From an uncultured Roseovarius sp. (GTDB lineage: Bacteria; Pseudomonadota; Alphaproteobacteria; Rhodobacterales; Rhodobacteraceae), in contig CANMOU010000003.1 of the NCBI GenBank assembly GCA_947499555.1, positions 258,979 through 322,978 on the forward strand: a stretch of DNA of 64,000 nucleotides. The letters run 5' to 3'. A model generated the notes under the pieces. That model did no database searches, had not been told where the DNA came from, and saw only the letters and a program-made list of their open reading frames with translations. Positions within the stretch are counted from its first letter, which is position 1. Every line of letters starts with the position of its first letter. The position numbers were made by a program, and so were the translations under genes. Positions 1,885 through 22,621 of this stretch are shown here, piece by piece.

Positions 1885-3443
1885 TGCACTGGATCCTCAT
1901 GCCCATTATCCTGCCCGCTATCCTGGCTCCCTTCATCGTGCTTGCTGCACGCTACCATATCCAGATCCAACGCGTCTTCTCGATGGCTGGTGTTGTGGCC
2001 CTGATCGCGATTGCCGCTGGTCTGGCTTGGCAGGCCTCGGACGGCACGGTCACGCTTTATCAACTGGGCGACTGGGCGGCCCCCTTTGGCATCGTCGTCG
2101 TGGGCGACCGGTTATCGACCCTGATGGTCTTGCTAACCGCAATCCTGGCATTCTTCGTGCTCCTTTATTCCATCGCCTCGGGCTGGGACGAGCGCGGACG
2201 GCATTTCCACGCGCTCTTCCAGTTTCAGCTGATGGGGATCATGGGCGCGTTCCTGACCGGTGACCTGTTTAACCTCTTTGTGTTCTTCGAGGTTCTGCTG
2301 ATCGCCTCATATGGTTTGATGATTCATGCCGGTGGCCGTGAGCGGCTTCGGGCAGGGGTGCAATATGTGCTCTTTAATCTCTTGGGGTCCACGCTCTTTT
2401 TGTTCGCGCTGGGCGCGATCTATGCAGAGACCGGCACGCTCAACATGGCCGATCTGGCGCAGCGCGTGACCTTGATCGATGCCGACTCCACGGTTGGTAT
2501 TCGCGTGGCGGCGGTTCTCTTGCTTCTTGTCTTCGCCATCAAAGCAGCGCTTGTGCCGCTCCATTTCTGGCTGCCCTCAAGCTATGCCGAAGCCCCGGCG
2601 CCCGTGGCGGCGCTTTTTGCCATCATGACCAAGGTCGGGGCCTATGCTATCATTCGTGTCTATACCATCGTCTTCCCGCCTGACCTTGAGGTGACAGCCG
2701 GGTTGCACAATGATTGGCTCTTGCCTGCGGCGCTCGTGTCACTTGCGCTTGGCATGGGTGGCGTTTTGGCCGCCAAGAAACTGGACCGGCTCGTGACCTT
2801 CGCGGTAATCGGGTCCATGGGTATGGTGATGGTTGCGATCTCTCTCTTCACCGCGGAGAGCATTGCGGCGGCACTCTACTACATCGTTCATTCGACCCTT
2901 GCGGCAGCGGCGCTTTTCCTGATTGTCGATCTGGTCCGCACAAGCCGTCCTCATCTTGATCTGACACTGTTGCCTCCGGTTGCTGGTGCTGCGCTTATTT
3001 CCGGGCTCTTTTTTGTGGCGGCCATCGCCATGGCCGGGCTCCCACCGCTGTCGGGTTTCTTGGGCAAGCTGCTTATTTTGGACGCGTCTTTCGAGACGGC
3101 CAATCCGGTCTGGCCGTGGGCTGTGATCCTCACGGCAAGCCTGATCAGTATCGTCGGCTTCGCGCGCGCGGGAAGTACGGTGTTCTGGAAAGCAAAGAGT
3201 GTCGAGGAAACGCCCGCCGAAGAAGCCGAAGACAAGCTGGAAGACAGACCAGAACCTGCCACGCTGTCCTATGTTGCGGTCGGCGGTTTGCTGGCTTTGC
3301 TGATCAGCTACACCGTGTTTTCGGGTCCGGTGCATGCCTATATGAGCGCGACCTCAGAGCAGCTCTTCGCACCGGAATCCTATTTCTCGACGGTACTAGA
3401 AACACCAGGCAAGCTCAGCACACCAAAAGAGGAGGCGCACTGA
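1881..3443 (+). CDS. mrpD: Na+/H+ antiporter subunit D (NuoN/NuoL-family proton-pumping subunit)
   Basis: 520-aa polytopic protein with NuoL/N-type motifs (FFEVLLIASYGLM, conserved helix pattern). ATGA overlap with mrpC. Confidence 0.9.
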   Translation: MMHWILMPIILPAILAPFIVLAARYHIQIQRVFSMAGVVALIAIAAGLAWQASDGTVTLYQLGDWAAPFGIVVVGDRLSTLMVLLTAILAFFVLLYSIASGWDERGRHFHALFQFQLMGIMGAFLTGDLFNLFVFFEVLLIASYGLMIHAGGRERLRAGVQYVLFNLLGSTLFLFALGAIYAETGTLNMADLAQRVTLIDADSTVGIRVAAVLLLLVFAIKAALVPLHFWLPSSYAEAPAPVAALFAIMTKVGAYAIIRVYTIVFPPDLEVTAGLHNDWLLPAALVSLALGMGGVLAAKKLDRLVTFAVIGSMGMVMVAISLFTAESIAAALYYIVHSTLAAAALFLIVDLVRTSRPHLDLTLLPPVAGAALISGLFFVAAIAMAGLPPLSGFLGKLLILDASFETANPVWPWAVILTASLISIVGFARAGSTVFWKAKSVEETPAEEAEDKLEDRPEPATLSYVAVGGLLALLISYTVFSGPVHAYMSATSEQLFAPESYFSTVLETPGKLSTPKEEAH

Positions 3444-3444
3444 C

Positions 3445-3945
3445 ATGGCAAGGGCTCTTAACTGGCTTTTCCCGCATCCGGTGCTCACGCTTCTTCTAAC
3501 GGTGGTCTGGACGCTTCTGCAAAATAACATCTCGGCAGGGATGGTGGTGTTCGGTTTGATCCTTGGAACGATCATTCCGCGCATGACGGCTGTTTGGTGG
3601 CCGGACCGGCCTCGCGGCATCCGGGCTTTCAAATTTCTCAAATATATGCTCATCGTGCTTTGGGATATTCTTGTCGCAAATGTTCAAGTGGCTTGGATCG
3701 TTTTGACCCGGCCAAACTCGAAGCTGCGCCCGGCATGGGTTGTGGTGCCCCTTGATCTCAAGCAGCCCGAGGCAATCACCGTGTTGGCTGGTACCATTAC
3801 ATTGACGCCCGGCACCGTGTCGGCGGATATTTCCAGCGAAGGCCACAGCCTATTGGTGCATTCGCTTGACACGGATGATCCCGACGCCGTCCGCGATGAG
3901 ATCAAGTCTCGTTACGAGGCCCGTCTGAAGGAGATTTTCCTATGA
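3445..3945 (+). CDS. mrpE: Na+/H+ antiporter subunit E
   Basis: 166 aa; N-terminal TM pair followed by a soluble domain, as in MrpE. Position in the operon supports the call. Confidence 0.8.
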   Translation: MARALNWLFPHPVLTLLLTVVWTLLQNNISAGMVVFGLILGTIIPRMTAVWWPDRPRGIRAFKFLKYMLIVLWDILVANVQVAWIVLTRPNSKLRPAWVVVPLDLKQPEAITVLAGTITLTPGTVSADISSEGHSLLVHSLDTDDPDAVRDEIKSRYEARLKEIFL

Positions 3946-4229
3946 CTGCTGCTTTAGGGTTTCTGAATATCGCCCTTATTATTGCGTTCTGTGCGGTGGT
4001 GGTCTCGCAGCTGCTGTGCATCATCCGGCTATTCATCGGCCCCGATACCGGCGATCGAATCCTGGCGCTTGATACCATGGTGGTAAATGCCATCGGGATC
4101 ATCGTCCTTCTCGGCATCTGGCAAGGCACGCAAATCTATTTTGAAGTCTCCGTCATTATCGCCATGCTGGGGTTTGTCTCGACGGTGGCCTATGCGCGGT
4201 TCCGGCTAAGAGGAGACATCATCGAATGA
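3942..4229 (+). CDS. mrpF: Na+/H+ antiporter subunit F
   Basis: 95 aa, 3 TM helices, ATGA overlap with mrpE. MrpF-like size and order. Confidence 0.8.
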   Translation: MTAALGFLNIALIIAFCAVVVSQLLCIIRLFIGPDTGDRILALDTMVVNAIGIIVLLGIWQGTQIYFEVSVIIAMLGFVSTVAYARFRLRGDIIE

Positions 4230-4612
4230 CCTTCGACGCGATCCTGGTATACATCGCCGGTGTCTGGCTTTTGATCGGCGCAATCTTTGCGCTTGTGGGC
4301 GCAATCGGCCTGCTGCGGTTCACAGACTCGATGACGCGGTTGCATGCGCCCACCAAGGTTGGGACCGTGGGCATTGGCGCTTTGCTTCTTGCCGCCATCA
4401 TTCATGCCAGCGTCAGTGGAGATGGAACAATCCATGAGGTTCTGATCATGGCCTTCCTGTTTGTCACCGCACCGATTTCGGCCAACTTCATTGCCAAGGT
4501 GCATATCCATCGGCGGTCCTGTGAAACACCACCGGTGCCTTTGAAGGATCCAACCTGGTCGACACTGGCAACAACCGACGAGACGCCGGAACAGACCAAG
4601 GTCGAAGTTTAG
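4226..4612 (+). CDS. mrpG: Na+/H+ antiporter subunit G
   Basis: 128 aa, 3 TM helices plus a hydrophilic tail, ATGA overlap with mrpF. Last gene of the operon. Confidence 0.8.
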   Translation: MTFDAILVYIAGVWLLIGAIFALVGAIGLLRFTDSMTRLHAPTKVGTVGIGALLLAAIIHASVSGDGTIHEVLIMAFLFVTAPISANFIAKVHIHRRSCETPPVPLKDPTWSTLATTDETPEQTKVEV

Positions 4613-7080: not shown

Positions 7081-8088
7081 ATGATGTCCCTTTCTCCCTC
7101 CAAACGCGCCAATCTTCGTGATGTGGCTCGCGCCGCCGACGTGTCTGTGGCGACGGTGTCTCGTGTCCTGAACACACCAGAAAAAGTCCGCAAGGAAACG
7201 CGCAAACGTGTCGAAGAACAAATCAGGCTTCTGCGTTTTGTGCCAAGCGCCGCAGCGCGTGCCTTTAGCACCGGCAGAACACGTGTTGTCGGAGCCCTGG
7301 TGCCGACCTTGGACAATGCCGTTTTCGCCAGGGTGCTGGAAAATCTTGAAAACGGGCTGGCACGGCGGGGCTTGGCGCTTGTCGTTGCAACCACCGATGA
7401 CGATCCAATAGTCGAGGCCGAAAAGGCACAGCAATTGGTGAATATCGGAGCCGAGGGCATGGTTGTCACCGGCATCACGCATAACAAGGCCTTCACAAAG
7501 CTTTTGGACCGGGCTGAGTTACCCGTGGTGGCGATTTCCTACTATGATCCAAGCTATCATATTCCGACAATCGGGTACGATAACCGCGAAAGCGCCAGAT
7601 TGGCGATGGATCATCTTTGCGCCAGCGGACACAGGAAAATAGCGGTTTTACACGGGCCCCTGCATTTCTCGGACAGAACGCGAAGTCGTGTAGACGCAAT
7701 CGGTGCGATGAAAACGGATGCCGAACTGCACTTTTTTCATACCGACGTTTCAATAGAGGGCGGTGTGCGGGCCGTGCAGCAGATGTTGTCTGCGCCTGTC
7801 GAGTTTGACGCATGCCTGTGCGCAACTGATGTCATAGCGACCGGGGTTCTGTTCGAGTTGCAGCGTCAGAACATCAAAGTGCCCGATGATATATCGCTGA
7901 TGGGTCTTGATGACCTGCCGATTTCAAGCTTCACCAACCCAACGCTCACCTCGGTCCGGGCACCGGTTCAGCAGATGGGTCTTCAGGCGGCGGACGCACT
8001 CGCGGATTGGATCGAAACAGGCTCTCGCCCACAAGCGATTTGTCTGCCGGTCACGCTTCAGGCGCGGCAATCCACACACCAAAGGTGA
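7081..8088 (+). CDS. LacI-family transcriptional regulator
   Basis: N-terminal HTH (ANLRDVARAADVSVATVSRVLN) plus a periplasmic-binding-protein-like sugar-binding domain. The likely start is ATG 7081 (MMSLSPSK); the ORF-track start at 7018 is probably an over-extension. Confidence 0.85.
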   Translation: MMSLSPSKRANLRDVARAADVSVATVSRVLNTPEKVRKETRKRVEEQIRLLRFVPSAAARAFSTGRTRVVGALVPTLDNAVFARVLENLENGLARRGLALVVATTDDDPIVEAEKAQQLVNIGAEGMVVTGITHNKAFTKLLDRAELPVVAISYYDPSYHIPTIGYDNRESARLAMDHLCASGHRKIAVLHGPLHFSDRTRSRVDAIGAMKTDAELHFFHTDVSIEGGVRAVQQMLSAPVEFDACLCATDVIATGVLFELQRQNIKVPDDISLMGLDDLPISSFTNPTLTSVRAPVQQMGLQAADALADWIETGSRPQAICLPVTLQARQSTHQR

Positions 8089-9054
8089 TCACTCGGCCAG
8101 ATGGCAGGCCACGCGTGTCTCTCCGATCATGCGCATCTCCGGGCGTTCCTTGCTGCAGCGGTCCACGGCCAAGGGGCAGCGCGGGTGAAATGCACAGCCG
8201 TTGGGCGGATTGATGGCATCGGGGATCTCGCCCTTGGGCGGGTCAACTTCACGGCCAAAGGCATCCATGCGGGGCGCCGCATCGAAAAGCATCTGCGTAT
8301 ACGGATGGCGCGGCTTGGCAAAAAGCGCGTCGCGTGGCGCTTCTTCGACCAGCCGACCCAGATAAAGCACGCCGATCCGGTCGGCCATGTGCTGCACAAC
8401 GGTTAGATCATGGCTGATGAAAAGATATGTGAGGCCAAGATCCTCGCGCAGGTCGGACATCAGGTTCAGCACCTGACTTTGTACTGACACATCCAAAGCC
8501 GATGTTGGCTCGTCACAGACGATGATCTTGGGGCCAGAGGCCAGCGCACGGGCGATACATATCCTTTGCCTTTGGCCGCCTGAAAACTCATGCGGATATT
8601 TCGACGCGTCTGCTGCCGACAGCCCCACCTGTTCCAAGAGCCGCTCGGCCAGACCGTTGGTGTCTCCACCCTTGGCCGCGACTGGTTCTGCGATAATGTC
8701 GCGCACGCGCCAACGAGGGTTGAGCGAAGCGTAGGGGTCTTGAAAGATCATCTGAATATCCGAGCGGACGGTCTCGATCTTACGGTCATCGCGTTCAGTG
8801 GCCAAATCTATACCGCTGATCTCGACAGCCCCATTCGATGGCGGAACAAGCCCCACGACGATCTTGCCAATGGTGGACTTGCCAGATCCACTCTCACCGA
8901 CAAGAGCATAGACGGTCTTTTCCTCAATCTCGAAACTGACATCTGAAACGGCAGTAAGAAGTGCTTTGGGCAGACGTTCAATGACCCGATTCAGCCATGG
9001 CTTTGAGACGTCAAAGACACGTGTCAGATTGCGAACTGAAATCAAGGCGCTCAT
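8089..9054 (-). CDS. Peptide/nickel ABC transporter ATP-binding protein (DppF/OppF-like)
   Basis: Walker A GESGSGKST, signature LSGGQRQR, and the C-terminal oligopeptide ABC extension. Start taken at MSALISVRNL. Confidence 0.85.
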   Translation of the reverse strand: MSALISVRNLTRVFDVSKPWLNRVIERLPKALLTAVSDVSFEIEEKTVYALVGESGSGKSTIGKIVVGLVPPSNGAVEISGIDLATERDDRKIETVRSDIQMIFQDPYASLNPRWRVRDIIAEPVAAKGGDTNGLAERLLEQVGLSAADASKYPHEFSGGQRQRICIARALASGPKIIVCDEPTSALDVSVQSQVLNLMSDLREDLGLTYLFISHDLTVVQHMADRIGVLYLGRLVEEAPRDALFAKPRHPYTQMLFDAAPRMDAFGREVDPPKGEIPDAINPPNGCAFHPRCPLAVDRCSKERPEMRMIGETRVACHLAE

Positions 9055-10040
9055 GCGACCGTGTCCTCTTTGATATTCAGCGGGAACCAGCATGCCGCGC
9101 GACCGTCGCAGGTATCAAGTCTCGGGGACGGATCCTGACGGCATCTGTCCTTCGCAAACTCGCAGCGCGGATTGAAGGCACAGCCTGTGGGCAAAGCACC
9201 CAGACGTGGCATGGCCCCGGGAATCTGACGCAGACGTTTCTGGCCCTGGCTTGCCAGAGGGGTCGAGGCCATAAGACCCGAAGTATAGGGATGCTTCGCT
9301 TCCGTGATCACATCGCGCACCGGCCCAAGCTCGGCCAGACGCCCGGCATACATAACGGCCACGCGGTCGGCGGCCTCGGCAATCACGCCCATGTCGTGGG
9401 TGACCAGCATCACGGCGACGCCGCGCTCGCGGCAGAGGCGTTTGAGCAGGGCCACGATCTGCGCCTGCACGGAGACATCCAAAGCGGTGGTGGGTTCATC
9501 GGCGATGACAAGCTCCGGTTCGGCGCAAAGCGCAAGCGCAATCACCACCCGTTGCCGCATCCCGCCAGAAAACTCGTGCGGATAGCTGTCAATCCGCTGG
9601 GCGGCAGCGGGTATGCCCACCTCTTCCAAAGCCGCGATGGCCCGTTTCTGCGCTTCGGATTGCCCGACATTCAGGTGTTCCTGGATCGTCTCGGTCAGCT
9701 GCTCGCCCACTGTCAGAAGCGGGTTGAGTGACGTCAGCGGATCCTGAAAAACCATCCCCATATGTCGCCCGCGCAACCGCCGCAACTTGTCACGCGAGAT
9801 ATCGTGGATGGGCTCGCCCTTGAGCAAGACCTCACCCGAGGTGATGTGCGCGGGCGGGTCAAGCAGGCCGATCACGGCATTCCCGGTCATGGATTTCCCC
9901 GCCCCGGATTCGCCCACCACACCAAGGATTTCGCCAGCATGAATGTCATAGCTCACCTGATCCACAGGTCGCAGAATGCCGTGCCGCGTGGGGATTTCCA
10001 CGACAAGGTCGCGGACGGAAAGGATGGGGGTGTTGGTCAT
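9051..10040 (-). CDS. Peptide ABC transporter ATP-binding protein (DppD/OppD-like)
   Basis: Walker A GESGAGKSM, signature FSGGMRQR. Start at MTNTPILSV, with ATGA overlap to the upstream permease. Confidence 0.85.
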   Translation of the reverse strand: MTNTPILSVRDLVVEIPTRHGILRPVDQVSYDIHAGEILGVVGESGAGKSMTGNAVIGLLDPPAHITSGEVLLKGEPIHDISRDKLRRLRGRHMGMVFQDPLTSLNPLLTVGEQLTETIQEHLNVGQSEAQKRAIAALEEVGIPAAAQRIDSYPHEFSGGMRQRVVIALALCAEPELVIADEPTTALDVSVQAQIVALLKRLCRERGVAVMLVTHDMGVIAEAADRVAVMYAGRLAELGPVRDVITEAKHPYTSGLMASTPLASQGQKRLRQIPGAMPRLGALPTGCAFNPRCEFAKDRCRQDPSPRLDTCDGRAACWFPLNIKEDTVA

Positions 10041-10996
10041 CTCAACCTCGGGTTCAATGCATCTCTGAGCCAATCGCCCAAGAGGTTGATCGACAGCGCC
10101 AGCGCCAGCAATGTCGCCGCCGGGAACAGCAGGATCCACCATTCCCCAGAGAACATGAATTCCTGCCCAATGCGGATGAGCGTTCCTAGCGAGGGTTTGG
10201 TGGGTGGCGCGCCGACGCCGAGGAAGCTGAGCGTCGCTTCGGCTATGATCGCCAAAGCCAAGGAGATCGTGGCAATCACCAGCACGGGGTTCAGCACATT
10301 GGGCAGGATATGCCGCAGCATGATGGAAAAGCGCGAGCGCCCGATGAGCTTGGCGGCCTGAACATATTCCTTGTTCTTCTCAACCAGTGTTGTGCCCCGA
10401 ACAACCCGCGCAAACTGCACCCAGTCCGAAAGCCCGATGGCGAGGATCAGCACCCAGATCGCCATTTGATCGCGGTATTCCGCAGGCGTGACCCCCTTCG
10501 CAATCCCGAAGATAAGCATCGCTACAAGGATCGAAGGGAAGGTCAGCTGAATATCGGCGATACGCATGATGATGGTTTCGGTCCACCCGCCCAGATACCC
10601 GGCAATCAGACCAAGCGTGACACCGATAAGCATCGCCAGAAGCACTGCCGAGAAGCCGACAAAAAGCGAAATGCGCATCCCGTAAAGGATGGTAGAGAAC
10701 ACATCGCGCCCTTGGTCGTCAGTTCCCAGAAAGAACGTATCGCCTGTGAAGGCATTGGCTTCGCCCGGCGGCGTGAATCCGTTCAAAAGGTTCAGAGTGG
10801 CCGGGTTGAACGGGTCGAAGGGCGCGATCAGCGGCGCGAAGACCGCCGCGAGGACAAGGAAAACAACAATAATAGCCGACACAATCGCCACAGGAGCATG
10901 GCGGAAGGACCACATGAAATCGCTGTCCCACATCCGCTTCATGCGGGACGGGGCAGTTGTGCTGATTTGGGTTTCTGAAAGCGGTGCGTCGGTCAT
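10037..10996 (-). CDS. Peptide ABC transporter permease (DppC/OppC-like)
   Basis: 6-TM binding-protein-dependent permease with the EAA-like loop. Start at MTDAPLSET. Confidence 0.85.
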   Translation of the reverse strand: MTDAPLSETQISTTAPSRMKRMWDSDFMWSFRHAPVAIVSAIIVVFLVLAAVFAPLIAPFDPFNPATLNLLNGFTPPGEANAFTGDTFFLGTDDQGRDVFSTILYGMRISLFVGFSAVLLAMLIGVTLGLIAGYLGGWTETIIMRIADIQLTFPSILVAMLIFGIAKGVTPAEYRDQMAIWVLILAIGLSDWVQFARVVRGTTLVEKNKEYVQAAKLIGRSRFSIMLRHILPNVLNPVLVIATISLALAIIAEATLSFLGVGAPPTKPSLGTLIRIGQEFMFSGEWWILLFPAATLLALALSINLLGDWLRDALNPRLR

Positions 10997-11991
10997 CAGT
11001 GGCCTCCCGCAGTGCGGTCCACGCGCAAGCGTGGATCGATCGCAAAATAAAGCATATCGACGATCAGGTTGATGCCCACGAACATCACCGAAATCATCAT
11101 GAGGTAAGCGGCCATCACGGGGATATCCACGAACTGCACGGCGTTGATGAACAAAAGCCCCACACCCGGCCACTGAAACACCGTTTCAGTGATGATGGCG
11201 AAGGCAATAATGCTGCCCAGTTGCAGGCCCGTGATCGTGATCACGGGCACCAATGTGTTCTTCAGCGCATGGCGGAAGTTGATGGCCCGGTCCTTGATCC
11301 CGCGCGCACGAGCAAAGCGGATATAGTCCATCCGAAGCACTTCCAGCATTTCGGTGCGCACCAGCCGCATAATCAGCGTCATTTGGTAAAGCCCGAGCGT
11401 GATCGCGGGCAGCACCAGAGCCTGCAGGCCACTCTGCGTAAGGAAGCCGGTGGACCAGCCGCCGATCTGAACTGTCTGGCCTCTCCCGAAACTTGGCAGC
11501 CAGCCAAGCTCAACCGAGAAGACGTAAATCAACAGAATCCCAATCAGGAATGTCGGCAATGACACTCCGATAAGCGAGGTAGTCATGATGATATTGGCCG
11601 CCACTCCACGTTTTCGGATAGCCGTGAAAATCCCCAGAGCAATGCCGCCGAGAAGCGCCAAAAGGCCGGAAACAAAGGCCAGTTCCAGCGTGGCTGGCAG
11701 CCGCTCTAACAGGATGTCTGATACTGGCCTTCCTTGCCGGAAACTTAGCCCGAAATTGCCTTGGACCGCGTTTTCCAGAAACCTGTAATATTGCACGAGA
11801 AATGACTGATCCAGACCGAGGTTCTCGCGCAGCCGCTCGACATCTTCGAGCGTCCTTTCCTGGCCCAGCATGTTTTCGATGGGATCACCGACAAATCGGA
11901 ACATGGCAAAGGCAACGAGTCCGACCACGAGAAGCACGAGCGCGGATTGCGCCACACGCCGGATGATATAGGCAAGCATGATCGTCCCCAA
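10996..11991 (-). CDS. Peptide ABC transporter permease (DppB/OppB-like)
   Basis: 331-aa permease with the typical N-terminal helix and conserved loop. The start may be the internal Met at 11979. Confidence 0.85.
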   Translation of the reverse strand: MGTIMLAYIIRRVAQSALVLLVVGLVAFAMFRFVGDPIENMLGQERTLEDVERLRENLGLDQSFLVQYYRFLENAVQGNFGLSFRQGRPVSDILLERLPATLELAFVSGLLALLGGIALGIFTAIRKRGVAANIIMTTSLIGVSLPTFLIGILLIYVFSVELGWLPSFGRGQTVQIGGWSTGFLTQSGLQALVLPAITLGLYQMTLIMRLVRTEMLEVLRMDYIRFARARGIKDRAINFRHALKNTLVPVITITGLQLGSIIAFAIITETVFQWPGVGLLFINAVQFVDIPVMAAYLMMISVMFVGINLIVDMLYFAIDPRLRVDRTAGGH

Positions 11992-17180: not shown

Positions 17181-18146
17181 TTAGAGGCCCAGCCAACCGT
17201 CCACGCGGTCAGAGTTCTCGTCGATCCACTTCTTGGCAGCATCCGCCGGATCCGTGCCGTTTGCGCTGATGTCGAATGCAAGAGCACTCACATCGTCAGC
17301 GGTCAGCTGGAAGTTCGAGAAGAACTCGGCAATCGCAGGTGAGCGATCAGCCAAAGAGTTCGACCACGCGATTTGCACGTTCTTCAAAGCGTCTTTCGTG
17401 GCGACGTTTGACTTTTCGTACCAGTCGGCATCGTCTGAAGGCTGAACCATCACGTATTTTGCAGGATCAAATGTGGGCTCGGTCAGCATCTGCACGTCAA
17501 ACTGGAACCAGACGGCATGTGGTTTGTAGCAGTAGAACGCATAGCCTTCTCCTTTGGCGATGCTGTCTTTGATGCGCGCTGTTTTCACACTTTCTTCGGC
17601 TCGAACAGGCTCAATGAAGTCGAGCAGACCATAGTCGCGGGTTTTGACTTCATTGACGTTGGCCGAGGCCCAGCCAGGCGCACCGATCCACATCTCACCC
17701 TTGCCGTTGCCGTCGCTGTCCATAAGCGCCGCCACGTCAGGACGACCCAGATCCGCGATATCGGTGATGTTGTTGGCTTCGCCGAAATCTTTGGTCACGC
17801 AGAAACCCTGGTTTCCCTCATAAGGGTTTGACGAAAGCGTCACAGTGCCTGCTTCATCGACGTATTTCTTGGTGAAGCTTTCCTGGTTGGGCAGCCAAAC
17901 GTCAGGATGGACGTCGATATCGCCTTTACCCTGATCCATCGCCTGGAAAATCGTGGCGTTGTTGCCCGGCACGTATTCCACCTTGCCACCGATGCGGGAT
18001 GTGACCACCTCGCCCAGCACATGCGCAATGGCTTGCGCTCCGGTCCAGGATGGAACGCCGATTTTCACCTCTTCCGCGGCAAAGGCCGGCAGCGCCAGCA
18101 CACTTACCACAGCCGCAAGGCCGATGGTTTTCAATTTCGATGTCAT
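17181..18146 (-). CDS. proX: Glycine betaine-type substrate-binding protein (ProX family), secreted
   Basis: Signal peptide MTSKLKTIGLAAVVSVLALPAFA. ProX/OpuAC-like fold, with aromatic residues typical of quaternary-amine cages. Confidence 0.85.
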   Translation of the reverse strand: MTSKLKTIGLAAVVSVLALPAFAAEEVKIGVPSWTGAQAIAHVLGEVVTSRIGGKVEYVPGNNATIFQAMDQGKGDIDVHPDVWLPNQESFTKKYVDEAGTVTLSSNPYEGNQGFCVTKDFGEANNITDIADLGRPDVAALMDSDGNGKGEMWIGAPGWASANVNEVKTRDYGLLDFIEPVRAEESVKTARIKDSIAKGEGYAFYCYKPHAVWFQFDVQMLTEPTFDPAKYVMVQPSDDADWYEKSNVATKDALKNVQIAWSNSLADRSPAIAEFFSNFQLTADDVSALAFDISANGTDPADAAKKWIDENSDRVDGWLGL

Positions 18147-18192
18147 TTCTTTCTCCTCTGTTATTGGATGCGCCGATTCTTACGGCGTCTGG

Positions 18193-19236
18193 TCATGTGA
18201 TTGATGCGGTGAGTTGCTCCTGATACGCGAATAGAGCTGTTGCGCCGCCAGTATGCAGGAAAAGCACGTTGTCGGTTGGCTTCAAGAAACCATTGCGAAC
18301 CATCCCGATCAACCCGGCCATGCCTTTCGCTGAGTACACGGGATCAAGAAGAATGCCTTCCTGCCTCGCTGTCAAATGGATTGCCTCTAAAGTAGACTCC
18401 GCGGGAATTCCGTAGCCCTCGCCAACATAGCCGTCATCCACCAGGATCTTTTCTTTTGCAATGTTCTCGGCGCCGAGTTTCTCAAGCGTTTTCTGCGTCA
18501 GCGCATGGACCGCGTTGATTTGCCTTTCCTTGGGTTGCCGCACGCTTACGCCCATGACGGGCAGGTCGTGACCAAGGGCATGGAAACCGGCAACCAGACC
18601 GGCCTGCGTGCCGGTGCTGCCGGTGCCCATCACGAGCCAATCAAAGATCTGGCCGGTCTCTTTGGTGTGATCCAGGATTTCCTGCGCGCAATTGACATAT
18701 CCTAAGGCGCCAGTCGCGTTTGAGCCACCGCCCGGGATGAAATAGGGCTTGTGGCCTTCGGCGCGCAAACTGTCTGCCACGGCTTCGGCTTCTGCATTCA
18801 TATCAAGTCCGCTGGGGCGGAACTCATGCGTTGCGCCGAAAAGCGTGTCGAGTAACACATTGCCTGTCTGTTCATAGCTTGCATCACGCTCGGGTACGCG
18901 TCGCTCCAGAAGGACGTGACATTTCATGCCGACCTTGGCAGCGGCGGCCGCTGTTTGTCTGACGTGGTTTGACTGCACCGCTCCTTGCGTGACGAGCATG
19001 TCAGCGTTCTCGCGTAGCGCTTCGCCGACCAGAAACTCCAGCTTGCGTGTTTTGTTGCCACCTGTGGCAAGCCCGGTGCAATCATCGCGCTTGATGAACA
19101 ATTTTGGTCCGCCAAGATTCTCCGAAAGGCGTGGCATTGCTTCGATCGGGGTTGGTCGGTGACACAGAGGGAACCGCGGGAAACGGTCAAAGCTGATATG
19201 CATAGCGCTCTCTTTAAGAAGCTCGGTGTCGGCCAT
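18193..19236 (-). CDS. PLP-dependent D-cysteine desulfhydrase/ACC deaminase/L-cysteate sulfo-lyase (CuyA) family enzyme
   Basis: 347 aa. The PLP-lysine motif (TGGNKTRKLEFLV) and the glycine-rich loop (GGGSNATG) are typical of the fold-type II ACC-deaminase family. Confidence 0.85.
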   Translation of the reverse strand: MADTELLKESAMHISFDRFPRFPLCHRPTPIEAMPRLSENLGGPKLFIKRDDCTGLATGGNKTRKLEFLVGEALRENADMLVTQGAVQSNHVRQTAAAAAKVGMKCHVLLERRVPERDASYEQTGNVLLDTLFGATHEFRPSGLDMNAEAEAVADSLRAEGHKPYFIPGGGSNATGALGYVNCAQEILDHTKETGQIFDWLVMGTGSTGTQAGLVAGFHALGHDLPVMGVSVRQPKERQINAVHALTQKTLEKLGAENIAKEKILVDDGYVGEGYGIPAESTLEAIHLTARQEGILLDPVYSAKGMAGLIGMVRNGFLKPTDNVLFLHTGGATALFAYQEQLTASIT

Positions 19237-19317
19237 CTTCCATTCCTTATTTGGATTACCCCGCGATAGCTTGACCGAGTATGTCCAAATGTTCCAATGT
19301 TATGTTTGAATGACATT

Positions 19318-19332
19318 ATGCAAAACTTGCAT
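19318..19332. promoter_or_regulatory. Candidate LysR box ATGCAAAACTTGCAT (T-N11-A inverted repeat)
   Basis: Imperfect palindrome with T-N11-A architecture in the 110-bp divergent region between the lysR-type gene and the PLP-enzyme operon. Confidence 0.4.
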
Positions 19333-19346
19333 GATCGGGTGTTGGC

Positions 19347-20264
19347 ATGGATATTTCCCTTTTTCGAGACCTTGATCGTCTGAAGCAGACGGGGAACTTT
19401 TCGCGCGCGGCGATGCAGGTCAACTTAAGCCAGCCGGCGTTCAGCCGGCGGATTAAGGCCCTTGAGACCTGGGTTGGAACGACCCTCGTAGACCGAAGCC
19501 GACAACCAGTCAGCCTGACGGAATCGGGGGCGCAAATTCTTGAAGCCGGGATGCAAGCTCTGTCACGCATTGAATCAGAGCGAAACCAGATCCGCGAGGC
19601 GCAATTGCTGCCTGACCGATACGTGACGACATTTGCCGCGCAGCATTCGATCAGCTGGCGGTTCTATCCTGCATGGCTTCAGGCCTTTGAAGACGCTTAT
19701 GGCCCGGTCCTATCAAGCCTGCGAGCAGATGACCTGCCCAATTGCCTGCGTGTCTTGAAAAAAGGCGAGGTGGATTTCGTGATCGCCTACCAACACCGCA
19801 GTATCGAATATGATTCAAGCGCCGAGTCCATTCTGATCGGGTCGGATAAACTGATCCCGGTGTGTAAACCCAAAATGGATGGCACGCCGATGTTCGATTT
19901 CGACAATCCCGATGTCGAGACACCCTTTCTGGAATACGGGGACTCAACGCCCATCGGAGCACAGCTCAAACCGATCCTCCTTTCGCAAGGTCTGACGCAC
20001 CGGCTGCGCACTGTCTACGAGAACTCAATGGGTGGCGCCTTGCGGATCCGCGCGCGGTCTGGCGATGGCGTCGCTTGGCTGTCGCAAAGTCTTGTGCAGC
20101 CGGATCTTGAGAACAAGCTGCTGGTGCGCATTGGCGACCCGGACTGGGACGTTGAGCTGGACATCCGTTTGTATCGGAACGCTAACAATTTGAATCAGGT
20201 CACGCGCTCCATATGGTCGTTTCTCAAGGGTCGGCAGGCCGAACCGATGGTCACCATGGATTAA
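19347..20264 (+). CDS. LysR-family transcriptional regulator
   Basis: N-terminal wHTH (LDRLKQTGNFSRAAMQVNLSQPAFSRRIKALE) plus a LysR substrate-binding domain. Divergent from the transporter/lyase operon. Confidence 0.85.
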   Translation: MDISLFRDLDRLKQTGNFSRAAMQVNLSQPAFSRRIKALETWVGTTLVDRSRQPVSLTESGAQILEAGMQALSRIESERNQIREAQLLPDRYVTTFAAQHSISWRFYPAWLQAFEDAYGPVLSSLRADDLPNCLRVLKKGEVDFVIAYQHRSIEYDSSAESILIGSDKLIPVCKPKMDGTPMFDFDNPDVETPFLEYGDSTPIGAQLKPILLSQGLTHRLRTVYENSMGGALRIRARSGDGVAWLSQSLVQPDLENKLLVRIGDPDWDVELDIRLYRNANNLNQVTRSIWSFLKGRQAEPMVTMD

Positions 20265-20344: not shown

Positions 20345-20418
20345 GCGGGTATGATGTAATGGTAGCCTGTCAGCTTCCCAAGCTGAACGCGCGGGTTCGA
20401 TTCCCGCTACCCGCTCCA
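20345..20418 (+). tRNA. tRNA-Gly (anticodon CCC)
   Basis: Manual fold: acceptor GCGGGTA/TACCCGC, anticodon stem TCAGC/GCTGA with loop TTCCCAA, T-arm GCGGG-TTCGATT-CCCGC, encoded CCA. U8, A14, G18, G19 and A21 are present; the D-stem has one T-C mismatch. Confidence 0.8.
20375..20418 (+). repeat. attL-like: 44-nt 3' half of tRNA-Gly (direct repeat copy 1)
   Basis: TTCCCAAGCTGAACGCGCGGGTTCGATTCCCGCTACCCGCTCCA is identical to 21992-22035. Confidence 0.85.
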
Positions 20419-20459
20419 AGCTCCTTTCTTTCCGATCTTCAACGCGTTAGCGTTCGTTT

Positions 20460-21425
20460 ATGAGCGATTTCAAAGATACATCAGATTGGAAGATTAAGGA
20501 CGGAACGACGCTCATCTATCCGCGCGAGTACAAAGGCAAAAAAGACGAGGTTGAGTCCGAAAAGAAACCGAACCGTCTCAACATGCAAGTCGAGAGGTTG
20601 TCGGTACTCAATACCATGTCTTGGGAGATCGAACGACACAGAGAGCCTGAGCAAGAAGCTGGGTTTTTAACATATGAGTCTATCACTGGACTTGGCGAGT
20701 TAGACAACTGCCGCCTGCACGCCATCACGCTCGACGAGAATGAGAACGAGACATTTACGAAACTCCATGTGGAAATTCACCCTGTCCCGCTTAAGAACCT
20801 ACAGGAAACGGCAAAGGTCGATACCTTGTCCATTATCGGTGAGGACGACGACAAACCCGACGAAGGCTGGATGAAGGACGAGATCGGCTCGATCCATTGC
20901 CACAGCGCGGGCGAGTACTATCACGAGTCACAGATTTTTGCGTCAGTTTTCCTTTCGCAAGAGAAGTTCGACGAACTTGTGACTGCGATTAAGGAGGGCA
21001 CCATCCGTTCTGCGCGAATGGAGATTCTCGCTGACGTCTACGAGTTCGGTTACGAGAGTCTTGGTGCAGATATCCGCGGTCACAAATACAACTACGCGAT
21101 CCTATGCGCGGACGAAGGCGAAAGTGCTAGGGGCAACCCGAAAGGTGCCAGCGGAAAGACGAGTGCAAGACTGCAGGAGGTCGTACTCGAATGGTCGCCG
21201 ACGCTAGACACTAGGATGGCCGCGCGCCGCGACGAGCCGGACGATGAAGACTATCTCGAACCGGATGACTTGGAGCCCGTCGGACGCGACATGGAAAAAA
21301 CAGTCGCTCGGCTGTCCAAAGACGTGCAAGGCATCCGCGGTCGCGTGGATGCATTCTACCAAGCGGCCATATTCGTTGTGATAATCCTAGTGATCTCGCA
21401 GGTTTCGGACTGGATCGGTTTTTGA
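20460..21425 (+). CDS. Hypothetical acidic protein with C-terminal transmembrane anchor (island cargo)
   Basis: 321 aa, no recognisable catalytic motifs, very acidic (EPDDEDYLEPDDLEPVG). The single C-terminal TM helix AAIFVVIILVISQVSDWIGF suggests a tail-anchored protein. GC is lower than in the flanks. Confidence 0.6.
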   Translation: MSDFKDTSDWKIKDGTTLIYPREYKGKKDEVESEKKPNRLNMQVERLSVLNTMSWEIERHREPEQEAGFLTYESITGLGELDNCRLHAITLDENENETFTKLHVEIHPVPLKNLQETAKVDTLSIIGEDDDKPDEGWMKDEIGSIHCHSAGEYYHESQIFASVFLSQEKFDELVTAIKEGTIRSARMEILADVYEFGYESLGADIRGHKYNYAILCADEGESARGNPKGASGKTSARLQEVVLEWSPTLDTRMAARRDEPDDEDYLEPDDLEPVGRDMEKTVARLSKDVQGIRGRVDAFYQAAIFVVIILVISQVSDWIGF

Positions 21426-21459
21426 AAGTGCTGGCCTAATGCTCCATCTTGGTTCAAAC

Positions 21460-21927
21460 ATGCGCCTTTTCCTCCTCCTCCTCTCTCTCCTGTCTACATC
21501 TCTCGCCACGGGCGCGTCTGCCGCTTGCAACATTGTGAACGGGAGAGCCTATGGGGACTGCGCAGGGGTGACCGTGAATACCGGCAGCACGCCCTTCCAA
21601 GTGATCGGCACTTACCGCTCGCGGTCGGGCATCTCGGAGGGCGCGCAAGTACTCTCGGGTGGGTCGCTCTCGGTATCCGGCATCGCTGACCGAGTGATCG
21701 TGGAACAAGGGGGCACAGCACACATCTCGGGAACCGTGCAGAGGTTGGAGGTGAGCGGTGTAGCTCACGTCTCTGGGACTGTGAACTCGATACTACTGCG
21801 TGATAGCGGATGCGTGATCGTCGAGGGCATCGTGGGGGGAATATCGGGCAACGGGACCGCCTTACTCGAGACGGGATCGGCGGATGCGGGCCGCCCGACC
21901 GGCGCGACGCATGAGGTCACTTACTGA
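21460..21927 (+). CDS. Hypothetical secreted Gly/Ser/Val-repeat protein (island cargo)
   Basis: Signal peptide MRLFLLLLSLLSTSLATGASAA. The mature part is built of short xSGxV-type repeats (VSGIADRV, ISGTVQRLEVSGVAHVSGTV, VGGISGNGT), which suggests a small beta-helix or beta-roll. Confidence 0.55.
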   Translation: MRLFLLLLSLLSTSLATGASAACNIVNGRAYGDCAGVTVNTGSTPFQVIGTYRSRSGISEGAQVLSGGSLSVSGIADRVIVEQGGTAHISGTVQRLEVSGVAHVSGTVNSILLRDSGCVIVEGIVGGISGNGTALLETGSADAGRPTGATHEVTY

Positions 21928-21991
21928 CAAATTACTGACGCGACCTCAATTGCGCCCACAAAATAAGGCGGTTTCAAAGGATCACTTATGG

Positions 21992-22035
21992 TTCCCAAGC
22001 TGAACGCGCGGGTTCGATTCCCGCTACCCGCTCCA
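21992..22035 (+). repeat. attR-like: second copy of the 44-nt tRNA-Gly 3' half (no 5' half, not a gene)
   Basis: Perfect identity to 20375-20418. The preceding sequence (CACTTATGG) cannot form the anticodon stem. Confidence 0.85.
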
Positions 22036-22621
22036 TAACCTCCGAAATTATCGAAGTCAGTTCTGCAGGGGTCAGGTCACGATCATGCCTGCACAACAAA
22101 CCATGGTCAGCGCCAGAAGTACCGCCAGTTCCAGCAAAGGCAAAAAAGATAACAGACGGCTGTCCCACCATCGCGACATAAGACGCATGGCGCGGCAACG
22201 TCGGCTGCCGGGGACGGGCGTGAGGTGAACATCGAATGTCGAATGCGGGTTCGAGCAGATCATGAGAATTGTCACACTGGTTAAAGTTACGGGTTCGTTG
22301 GTACTCGTTTCGGCAAAGACTGAGGCCGAATTAGGGGGAGTTTGCCATCATGCCGTCAAACCCGTTACGAGATCGTTAACAAGCCAGGTGGCCTGATCGC
22401 GACGCTGTTCACGTTTGTTGAACAGTTCAGCCTGAGATTTCGCCATCTTGAGAAAAAATAGGTGCGACTGTTTCCGGCAGCGACCTAATCAAACCCTTTG
22501 AAACTGTGGCAATCTCGCCTTATACGACGGTGCGTTTTCTTGGAAACAATCTGTTTTCACCCGTGTTCGGCTCCTGATAAGACGTCAGACCACACGAAAG
22601 GTCAGGAATAAGGAGCGCCAG

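Follow-up and report, generated by a model that had tools for sequence, protein, structure and literature searches.

Several described systems come close to the locus discussed here. Cis-mobilizable elements (CIMEs) and the concept of accretion are described in the integrative and conjugative element (ICE) and integrative and mobilizable element (IME) systems of Streptococcus (PMC5704250, section 2.3). The Islander catalogue of islands in tRNA genes (tDNA islands) requires a PF00589 integrase inside the interval (PMC4383910). The tycheposons of Prochlorococcus form arrays of elements separated by partial tRNAs, carry their own tyrosine (or serine) recombinase and replication modules together with multi-gene cargo, and push older elements outward through successive integrations (bioRxiv 10.1101/2020.12.28.424599). 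Our locus lies in a 64,000-nucleotide stretch of DNA from an uncultured Roseovarius sp. (contig CANMOU010000003.1; the whole stretch is called the window below), in which the 3' half of an intact tRNA-Gly(CCC) gene is repeated downstream of two open reading frames, ORF1 and ORF2.

We think it likely that positions 20419-22035 of the window form a composite, integrase-less, CIME-like mini-element that is bounded by attachment (att) sites in the 3' half of tRNA-Gly(CCC) and consists of two single-gene cassettes. Between the repeats lie only ORF1 and ORF2, neither of which resembles a recombinase or relaxase, and recombination and transfer genes are thus absent, as the CIME concept demands. What is new relative to an earlier note on this DNA, drawn from its letters and open reading frames, concerns the two genes themselves: they are best read as independent single-gene cassettes of one tRNA-Gly(CCC) att family, apparently fused in the window's islet.

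The islet in tRNA-Gly(CCC)

The features of the islet, in window coordinates, are as follows.

20345-20418, plus strand: intact tRNA-Gly(CCC) gene on the attL side (ARAGORN; Rfam RF00005, 62.6 bits)
20375-20418, plus strand: direct repeat copy 1, the att core inside the tRNA gene, from anticodon loop to CCA end (repeat finder)
20419-20459, plus strand: left arm and ORF1 leader, 41 nt (AGCTCCTTTCTTTCCGATCTTCAA...), conserved in all ORF1 units (comparison with loci L001, L010 and L020)
20460-21425, plus strand: ORF1, 321 aa, cargo of cassette 1, orphan family (ORF call)
21421-21455, plus strand: putative degenerate remnant of an internal att core, overlapping the ORF1 stop and the annotated 5' end of ORF2 (alignment A4)
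21439-21927, plus strand: ORF2, cargo of cassette 2, 162 aa as called and about 155 aa from the probable start at 21460 (ORF call, homologues)
21928-21991, plus strand: right arm (P-arm), from the ORF2 stop to repeat copy 2, with CAATTG, TTACTGAC and GGATCACTTATGG motifs (alignment A3)
21992-22035, plus strand: direct repeat copy 2, the attR core, a displaced or duplicated tRNA 3' half lacking the 5' half (repeat finder)

The 44-nt repeat, TTCCCAAGCTGAACGCGCGGGTTCGATTCCCGCTACCCGCTCCA, occupies 20375-20418 and 21992-22035 with 100% identity and is the only 44-nt family reported by the repeat finder; by our own arithmetic, about 1e-17 such pairs would be expected by chance in 64 kb. The earlier note had described a perfect 44-bp repeat of the tRNA-Gly 3' half, and ARAGORN, Rfam and the repeat finder reproduced its coordinates and identity; its reading of the pair as the attL/attR signature of site-specific integration into a tRNA gene is likewise supported. 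The block of identity begins with TTCCCAA, which is the anticodon loop, in the window and in L001, L010, L013 and L020 (handles of this form denote recovered loci). The anticodon loop is the 'A' crossover subsite of tRNA genes, the others being the T loop and the T/acceptor junction (Islander, PMC4383910).

The absence of an integrase between the repeats, also remarked on earlier, extends to the whole 64-kb window. A tblastn search with four integrases and one resolvase detected neither kind of protein anywhere in it, and a profile built from five integrases reached a best E of 1.8 against all six-frame segments of the window; as a control, the same profile detected the integrase of L016, which lay outside its training set, at E=1e-23. 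No recombinase, primase or helicase was found in or near the islet, and promoter and terminator scans of the islet returned nothing over shuffled expectation. An insertion sequence (IS) or miniature inverted-repeat transposable element (MITE) was considered and rejected, as the repeat finder reported no terminal inverted repeats at the islet ends, the 44-nt repeat is derived from a tRNA, and the repeat copy of L020 differs from its target at five positions.

Both genes had been described as visibly lower in GC than the flanks. This holds weakly for ORF1, whose GC of 0.525 (window, 0.567) is the lowest of 29 long ORFs yet whose GC at third codon positions (GC3), 0.634, is ordinary, and it is wrong for ORF2, whose GC of 0.618 (GC3, 0.712) exceeds the window mean.

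ORF1 and ORF2 as separate units

If ORF1 is looked for elsewhere, it is found as a unit of its own. In L001 (identical to L009), L010 and L020, an ORF1 homologue (73-78% amino acid identity) starts exactly 41 nt downstream of a tRNA-Gly(CCC) gene, and a copy of the tRNA 3' half comes 45-110 nt beyond the homologue. The homologue of L020 (L020:10001-10918) has an in-frame stop, with GACTAGATAGG in place of the GACTGGAT.GG of the others, that shortens it to 305 aa; it may be a pseudogene or, the contig being a long-read assembly at 7x, reflect a sequencing error. The contig of L013, from Mesobacterium hydrothermale, begins inside ORF1 and has the same right end, with right arm and canonical 44-mer. 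ORF1 is therefore present without ORF2 in four other Rhodobacteraceae assemblies (L001, L010, L013 and L020), all four closed by a tRNA 3'-half copy. The neighbours of the units are all different, being LysR and cmk in the window, APH and RidA in L001, an ABC permease and RACo in L010, and an ABC ATPase and rpoZ-spoT in L020, and tblastx matches of L001 and L010 to the whole window were limited to the tRNA and ORF1.

The ends of these units are alike as well. Their left arm has the consensus AG(C/T)TCCTTTCTTTCCGATCTTCAA and, with the tRNA end included, is 87-94% identical over 49-64 nt between units; by our own count the 41-nt arm is about 80% identical between the window and L001, although the adjoining gene shows more than one synonymous substitution per site (dS >1). 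Their right arm holds one or two (C/T)CATTG(A/G) motifs, with TATG(C/G) directly before the core. The window's own right arm has (A/C)TCA(C/T)T...TATGG in common with the ORF1 units and TTACTGAC in common with the ORF2 units of L025-L028 described below. Because dS between ORF1 copies exceeds 1 and the repeat copies are nevertheless preserved, the units cannot be read as a single old neutral relic. Taken together, the units indicate that the same small ORF1 element has probably integrated several separate times, rather than being one inherited scar or the product of random decay of larger islands.

How the repeats relate to their resident tRNA genes bears on the way in which they arose. Repeat copy 2 is identical at 44 of 44 positions in the window, L013 and L020. 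The repeats of L001 and L010 have at most two mismatches to the local tRNA, even though about 9 of 40 positions in these two tRNAs are unlike those of the window. The copy in L020, being canonical, differs from its resident tRNA at five clustered positions, and in L143:13179-13392 (minus strand) only 96 bp separate a variant tRNA-Gly(CCC) from a canonical partial copy of 49 nt (TCAGC...) downstream of it; the anticodon stem of that tRNA (CTAGC/GCTAG) is altered on both strands in a compensatory manner. L143 shows that a resident tRNA and its displaced copy can differ in origin. Hybrid patterns such as those of L020 and L143 would be expected from attP x attB recombination between unlike partners, and they disfavor target duplication or gene conversion. 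Target-site duplication was accordingly rejected as the origin of the repeats, since the copies in L020 and L143 differ from the local tRNA.

The same comparisons bear on a vertical history, in which tRNA, ORF1 and repeat were already joined in a common Rhodobacteraceae ancestor, the repeats were kept alike by gene conversion, and the flanks were rearranged later. Two observations agree with it: the identity among tRNA-linked ORF1 copies (73-87%) falls within the divergence of housekeeping genes between genera, with the LysR ortholog reaching 70% at best, and the repeats of L001 and L010 track the local tRNA variant. We nevertheless consider this history very unlikely, given that the family is extremely patchy, with 11 loci found across 185,579 species genomes and with 51 cluster representatives out of 1.84 billion searched exhaustively, that the flanks all differ, that the five clustered differences in L020 speak against conversion at that locus, and that integrase islands at other tRNAs carry the more distant relatives of ORF1. 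An exact search of metagenome contigs with the 44-mer, which returned at least 120 stretches, points the same way. Among the 120 matches listed, 109 held a full-length tRNA (by a looser prefix test), and none of these 109 showed, within the available flank, an ORF1 left arm or any further copy of the tRNA tail.

That search also places the tRNA itself. Its 5' half, weak D-stem included, was identical in 100 of the 120 matches listed. The window's tRNA-Gly(CCC) is a widespread canonical sequence, and occupancy of the window's kind is uncommon, because the 5' half is common in these metagenome matches and the left arm and second copy are absent from them. The D-stem pairs at only three of four positions (A-U, U.C, G-C, U.G), and this form is dominant in more than 100 contigs from soil, rhizosphere and marine metagenomes, which makes it a conserved peculiarity rather than damage.

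ORF1 relatives number 34 in a collection of 5.8 billion proteins, and those with a named source all belong to Rhodobacteraceae. The more distant ones (54-60% identity) are cargo in integrase-bearing islands or a prophage-like region at other tRNAs or sites (L004, L002/L011 and L016), and others stand alone without recognizable repeats (L003/L015 and L152). The close homologues P0002-P0004, P0006 and P0009 lie on Logan contigs of 1.1-1.4 kb that barely exceed the length of the gene, as would be expected if assemblies broke at flanking repeats.

ORF2 also occurs in units of its own. In L021-L024 and L025-L028, which represent two metagenome lineages, an ORF2 homologue with 73-75% identity lies between two degenerate repeats of the tRNA-Gly 3' half. 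The upstream repeat stops 14 nt before the start codon; before the downstream one stands AAAA(A/C)TCATTGAT...CATCATCC and after it GAGCCTTTCT, arm signatures that the ORF1 units share. A AAAATCATTGAT arm comes before the downstream repeat and AGCC-CTTTCT after it, as at the ends of ORF1 units. Searches of the ORF2 loci for extra cassettes (blastn-short with att and arm queries) gave only the two repeats that bracket ORF2, and the small ORFs neighboring the ORF2 units had no detectable bounding repeats and, apart from Sel1, no Pfam family. Upstream of the ORF2 unit of L026, on a contig that has no integrase, lies an element encoding AlpA and a family-A polymerase (PolA), an arrangement consistent with tandem accretion.

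Elsewhere, ORF2 is cargo. In Sulfitobacter indolifex a relative follows a 549-aa integrase at a tRNA-Tyr gene. This island (L005-L008, including TARA contigs, about 7991-11555, tRNA-Tyr(GTA)) reads integrase, ORF2 homologue and an unrelated orphan of 324-343 aa, with an FRG-domain protein and a resolvase farther in; the integrase is unusually long and matches PF00589 weakly. The 324-aa Sulfitobacter gene after the ORF2 homologue was tried as a counterpart of ORF1 and rejected, as the two have no similarity.

These distributions count against a joint function. ORF1 and ORF2 lie on the same strand 13-34 nt apart, one product would be anchored in the membrane and the other exported, and both families occur on mobile elements, all of which would suit a two-gene module, such as a defense or surface-interaction pair, in which a tail-anchored ORF1 protein works together with a secreted ORF2 protein. 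The earlier note had proposed such a pair and a search for it elsewhere. None of the 24 ORF2 relatives adjoins an ORF1 relative, and the two genes were never together in any other recovered locus: ORF1 stands alone in L001, L010, L013, L020, L003 and L152, and ORF2 in L005-L008 and L021-L028. A remnant of an att site appears to separate them in the window, the neighbor of ORF2 in Sulfitobacter is unrelated to ORF1, and neither gene has a PADLOC or PHROG match. A joint module is the least probable of the readings considered here, and nothing supports a role in defense, with no PADLOC-DB 2.0 family at E<=1 for either ORF.

Both proteins look like maintained gene products. ORF1 has ratios of nonsynonymous to synonymous substitution (dN/dS) of 0.05-0.12 and ORF2 of 0.11-0.17 against more distant homologues, with dS >1 between the window and every relative in each case, and both are under purifying selection. 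The 321-aa product of ORF1, described earlier as acidic and tail-anchored, has a pI of 4.67, 65 acidic (D+E) against 38 basic (K+R) residues and a sole hydrophobic segment at about 298-321, in keeping with that description. It is predicted to be a beta-rich cytoplasmic protein with a disordered acidic linker, tail-anchored by a C-terminal transmembrane helix. ORF2 likewise bears out its earlier portrayal as a secreted protein rich in Gly, Ser and Val, having an N-terminal hydrophobic signal-like segment and 39-42% Gly+Ser+Val; its start is probably at 21460 rather than that of the 162-aa call because homologues begin at the window's Met8. An AlphaFold2 model (predicted local distance difference test score [pLDDT], 88) shows a small beta-helix behind the signal peptide, and two cysteines are invariant in the family. 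ORF2 is predicted to be a secreted or lipid-anchored beta-helix protein.

Neither protein could be assigned to a known family, fold or housekeeping homology, in agreement with the earlier view of two orphan genes without recognizable domains. Searches of Pfam, NCBIfam, PHROGs and PADLOC returned no match for ORF1 or ORF2 (in Pfam and PADLOC-DB 2.0, none at E<=1), PDB sequence profiles were negative for both, and a Foldseek search of BFVD was negative for ORF1. ORF2 was considered as a bactofilin and rejected, having no Pfam match at E<=1 and, as its best Foldseek match in PDB, BacA (2n3d) at a nonsignificant E of 0.15 and a TM score of 0.29-0.43; its signal peptide and conserved cysteines imply export, unlike the cytoplasmic, polymer-forming bactofilins. 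A phage or plasmid origin of the islet was also set aside, since no relatives of either gene were found in IMG/VR or, by DNA or by protein, in INPHARED and PLSDB. We regard the two products as putative independent accessory envelope proteins, not as a system.

A probable fusion in the window and a proposed route

A trace of the junction of the two cassettes may survive between the genes. In the window, ...GGTTTTTGAA[10-nt gap]AGTGCTGGCCTAATGCTCCATCT... can be aligned with a degenerate tRNA-half repeat of L025 and L021, where it stands 14 nt ahead of the ORF2 homologue, and the region keeps the terminal GCTCCATC and the spacer before ATGCGCC. Positions 21421-21455 may therefore be what remains of an internal att core after the ORF1 right arm was deleted; the alignment suggests this homology and does not prove it. 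TGAA occurs at both putative break points, and the deletion between ORF1 and ORF2 may have passed through this microhomology.

Other elements use the target as well. Among the 44-mer matches listed, roughly six are partial and resemble attR, and these form part of other elements. L063 (reverse-complement orientation, about 3329-4489) has a 366-aa PF00589 integrase that stops 17 nt short of an exact partial 44-mer; the arm of this element bears no relation to the arms of the ORF1 and ORF2 units, and an ORF of 708 aa is situated upstream of the integrase. In L037:3560-3709, an element with the toxin HipA ends in an arm whose three GCCATTGA/CAATGGC motifs closely precede a partial copy of tRNA-Gly, and GCCATTGA is the same motif as in the arms of the ORF1 and ORF2 cassettes. 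Motifs of this CATTG type look like arm-type integrase binding sites and may mark a shared integrase family. Because the elements of L063, L037 and L143 also use it, tRNA-Gly(CCC) is a recurrent integration site. The earlier note had called for a check for integrase-bearing islands at this tRNA, and the metagenome contigs do supply L063, with its integrase, and L037, with HipA. In L105:1195-1366, about 128 bp separate two partial copies of the tRNA-Gly(CCC) 3' half, an exact copy and one whose tail has a single mismatch, which together form a small array of att remnants.

Such elements invite a simple explanation, also raised in the earlier note, by which an integrase-bearing island or prophage at tRNA-Gly(CCC) was reduced by internal deletions to a stump holding two cargo genes, inert debris whose likeness to other loci reflects independent decay of related islands. 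Besides L063 and L037 at the same tRNA, larger islands elsewhere carry ORF1 and ORF2 relatives as cargo, a deletion between ORF1 and ORF2 appears to have taken place, the window's right arm is weak, and L143, with tRNA, 96 bp and partial copy, is an almost fully deleted element. Independent decay, however, should leave different remnants, and the boundaries of the ORF1 unit (41-nt leader, ORF1, short CATTG arm and core) are shared by four further assemblies whose flanks are unrelated; the ORF2 unit has a repeat pair of its own, both genes are under purifying selection, and the conservation of the repeat copies far exceeds that of neutral DNA at dS >1. Decay of a larger island fits poorly with a 1.1-kb ORF1 unit that is found again in four further assemblies, and we judge it unlikely.

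For the composite of two cassettes that we prefer, the route we infer comprises integrase-mediated entry, accretion followed by deletion, mobilization in trans and co-transcription of ORF1 with the tRNA. Cassette 1 would consist of left arm, ORF1, right arm and core, which elsewhere form the recurrent 1.1-kb unit, and cassette 2 of ORF2, right arm and core, which elsewhere stand alone. Each would enter by recombination of the cassette attP with the tRNA attB through a tyrosine integrase (of the anticodon-loop class), the attP being a tRNA 3' half set between arms with repeated CATTG-type motifs and its identity block starting at the anticodon loop. Both cassettes would come to lie in tandem at one tRNA, after which a short deletion, possibly through the TGAA microhomology, would fuse them by removing the right arm of ORF1 along with the greater part of the internal core. 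The integrase would have been lost, or a related element at another place in the genome would provide it in trans. An excised circle would have the predicted attP junction ...GGATCACTTATGG-TTCCCAAGCTGAACGCGCGGGTTCGATTCCCGCTACCCGCTCCA-AGCTCCTTTCTTTCCGATC..., and an empty attB would read ...GGTAGCCTGTCAGC-TTCCCAAGC...CCGCTCCA-TAACCTCCGAAATTATCG.... Since ORF1 starts 41 nt after the tRNA and no terminator was detected between them, it is probably read through from the tRNA promoter.

Several points weigh against this account. The number of units is small (ORF1 units at five loci, ORF2 units in two lineages), and several come from metagenome-assembled genomes or metagenome contigs. A close ORF1 homologue, L152, has the left arm, but its 1.2-kb contig shows neither a tRNA nor a clear repeat. 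The window's right arm resembles the CATTG-type arms weakly and is the least conserved of the set, and because of this the window copy is perhaps no longer competent for recombination. The repeats of L001 and L010 follow their own host tRNA, which requires either donors with a matching attP or a homogenizing process; transfer may take place mostly among close relatives, or such a process may be at work. An exact metagenome search with the junction of attR and right flank gave no match, and the analysis turned up neither an integrase partner nor an excised circle or empty site. No parent element with the same arms and an integrase was recovered, the contig of L037 showing only HipA and that of L026 having no integrase.

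The surroundings of the islet are ordinary chromosomal genes, with OpuAC, PALP and LysR upstream and cmk and rpsA downstream. The nearest ortholog of the flanking LysR gene is at most 70% identical, and the collections held no close relative of this genome. The OpuAC-PALP-LysR block (window 17181-20264) is syntenic in L149-L151 at 68-69% identity, with synteny stopping right after LysR, and no tRNA follows LysR in those three loci. Because of this break and the missing tRNA, the tRNA-Gly/cmk junction is read as a lineage-specific rearrangement point. Between the attR copy and cmk lie 586 bp (22036-22621) with no ORF of convincing length, only minus-strand frames of 63-70 aa, one of them hydrophobic; this interval may be native to the intergenic region or left over from an older insertion. 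The ORFs that follow the window's tRNA-Asn and tRNA-Ser encode a Band_7 protein and an aldo-keto reductase.

Comparison with known systems

A broader idea than the composite in the window is that these units are a distinct class of miniature integrative cassettes in marine Rhodobacteraceae: single-gene, promoter-less units of 0.6-1.1 kb with a complete attP, inserted, stacked and perhaps shuffled by a tyrosine integrase acting in trans, expressed from the tRNA promoter, and thus integron-like with a tRNA gene as acceptor. We put this forward tentatively, as a possibility that is less probable than not. If it were true, single accessory genes would have a simple route by which to spread in abundant marine bacteria; if the units are not mobile, the islet is an ordinary CIME-type relic. 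Two orphan families of putative envelope proteins carried on mobile elements are now defined. The recurrence of the ORF1 unit points to gene flow by way of some of the smallest 'remnants', which would rely on integrases in trans, and islets like the window's would be systematically missed by catalogues that require an integrase in the interval, because the Islander filter demands that gene inside it.

Among described elements, CIMEs resemble the islet in retaining attL and attR derived from a tRNA 3' end, in lacking integrase, excisionase and transfer genes, and in showing a putative internal att remnant as a sign of tandem accretion. The units described here differ in being much smaller, at 0.6-1.1 kb and one gene each, and in having marine Rhodobacteraceae rather than Firmicutes as hosts. 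The ORF1 unit also recurs with the same boundaries in several genera, unlike a one-off decay product of a known ICE or IME, and a parent ICE or IME was not recovered. With the tDNA islands of Islander the islet shares a regenerated tRNA gene, a displaced 3' fragment in direct orientation and an identity block starting at the anticodon loop; unlike them it has no PF00589 integrase in the interval and would be filtered out of the catalogue.

Tycheposons are likewise found in marine bacteria, integrate next to tRNAs, and leave partial tRNA copies between units along with degenerate remnants, but the islet has no recombinase or replication module, one gene per unit, and another host phylum and target tRNA. 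As an organizational analogy only, the units recall integron cassettes: both are promoter-less single-ORF units that end in a recombination site, form tandem stacks and rely on an integrase from another locus. In the units, however, the recombination site is a tRNA 3' half with lambda-like arms instead of an attC hairpin, the acceptor is a tRNA gene instead of attI, and there is no IntI.

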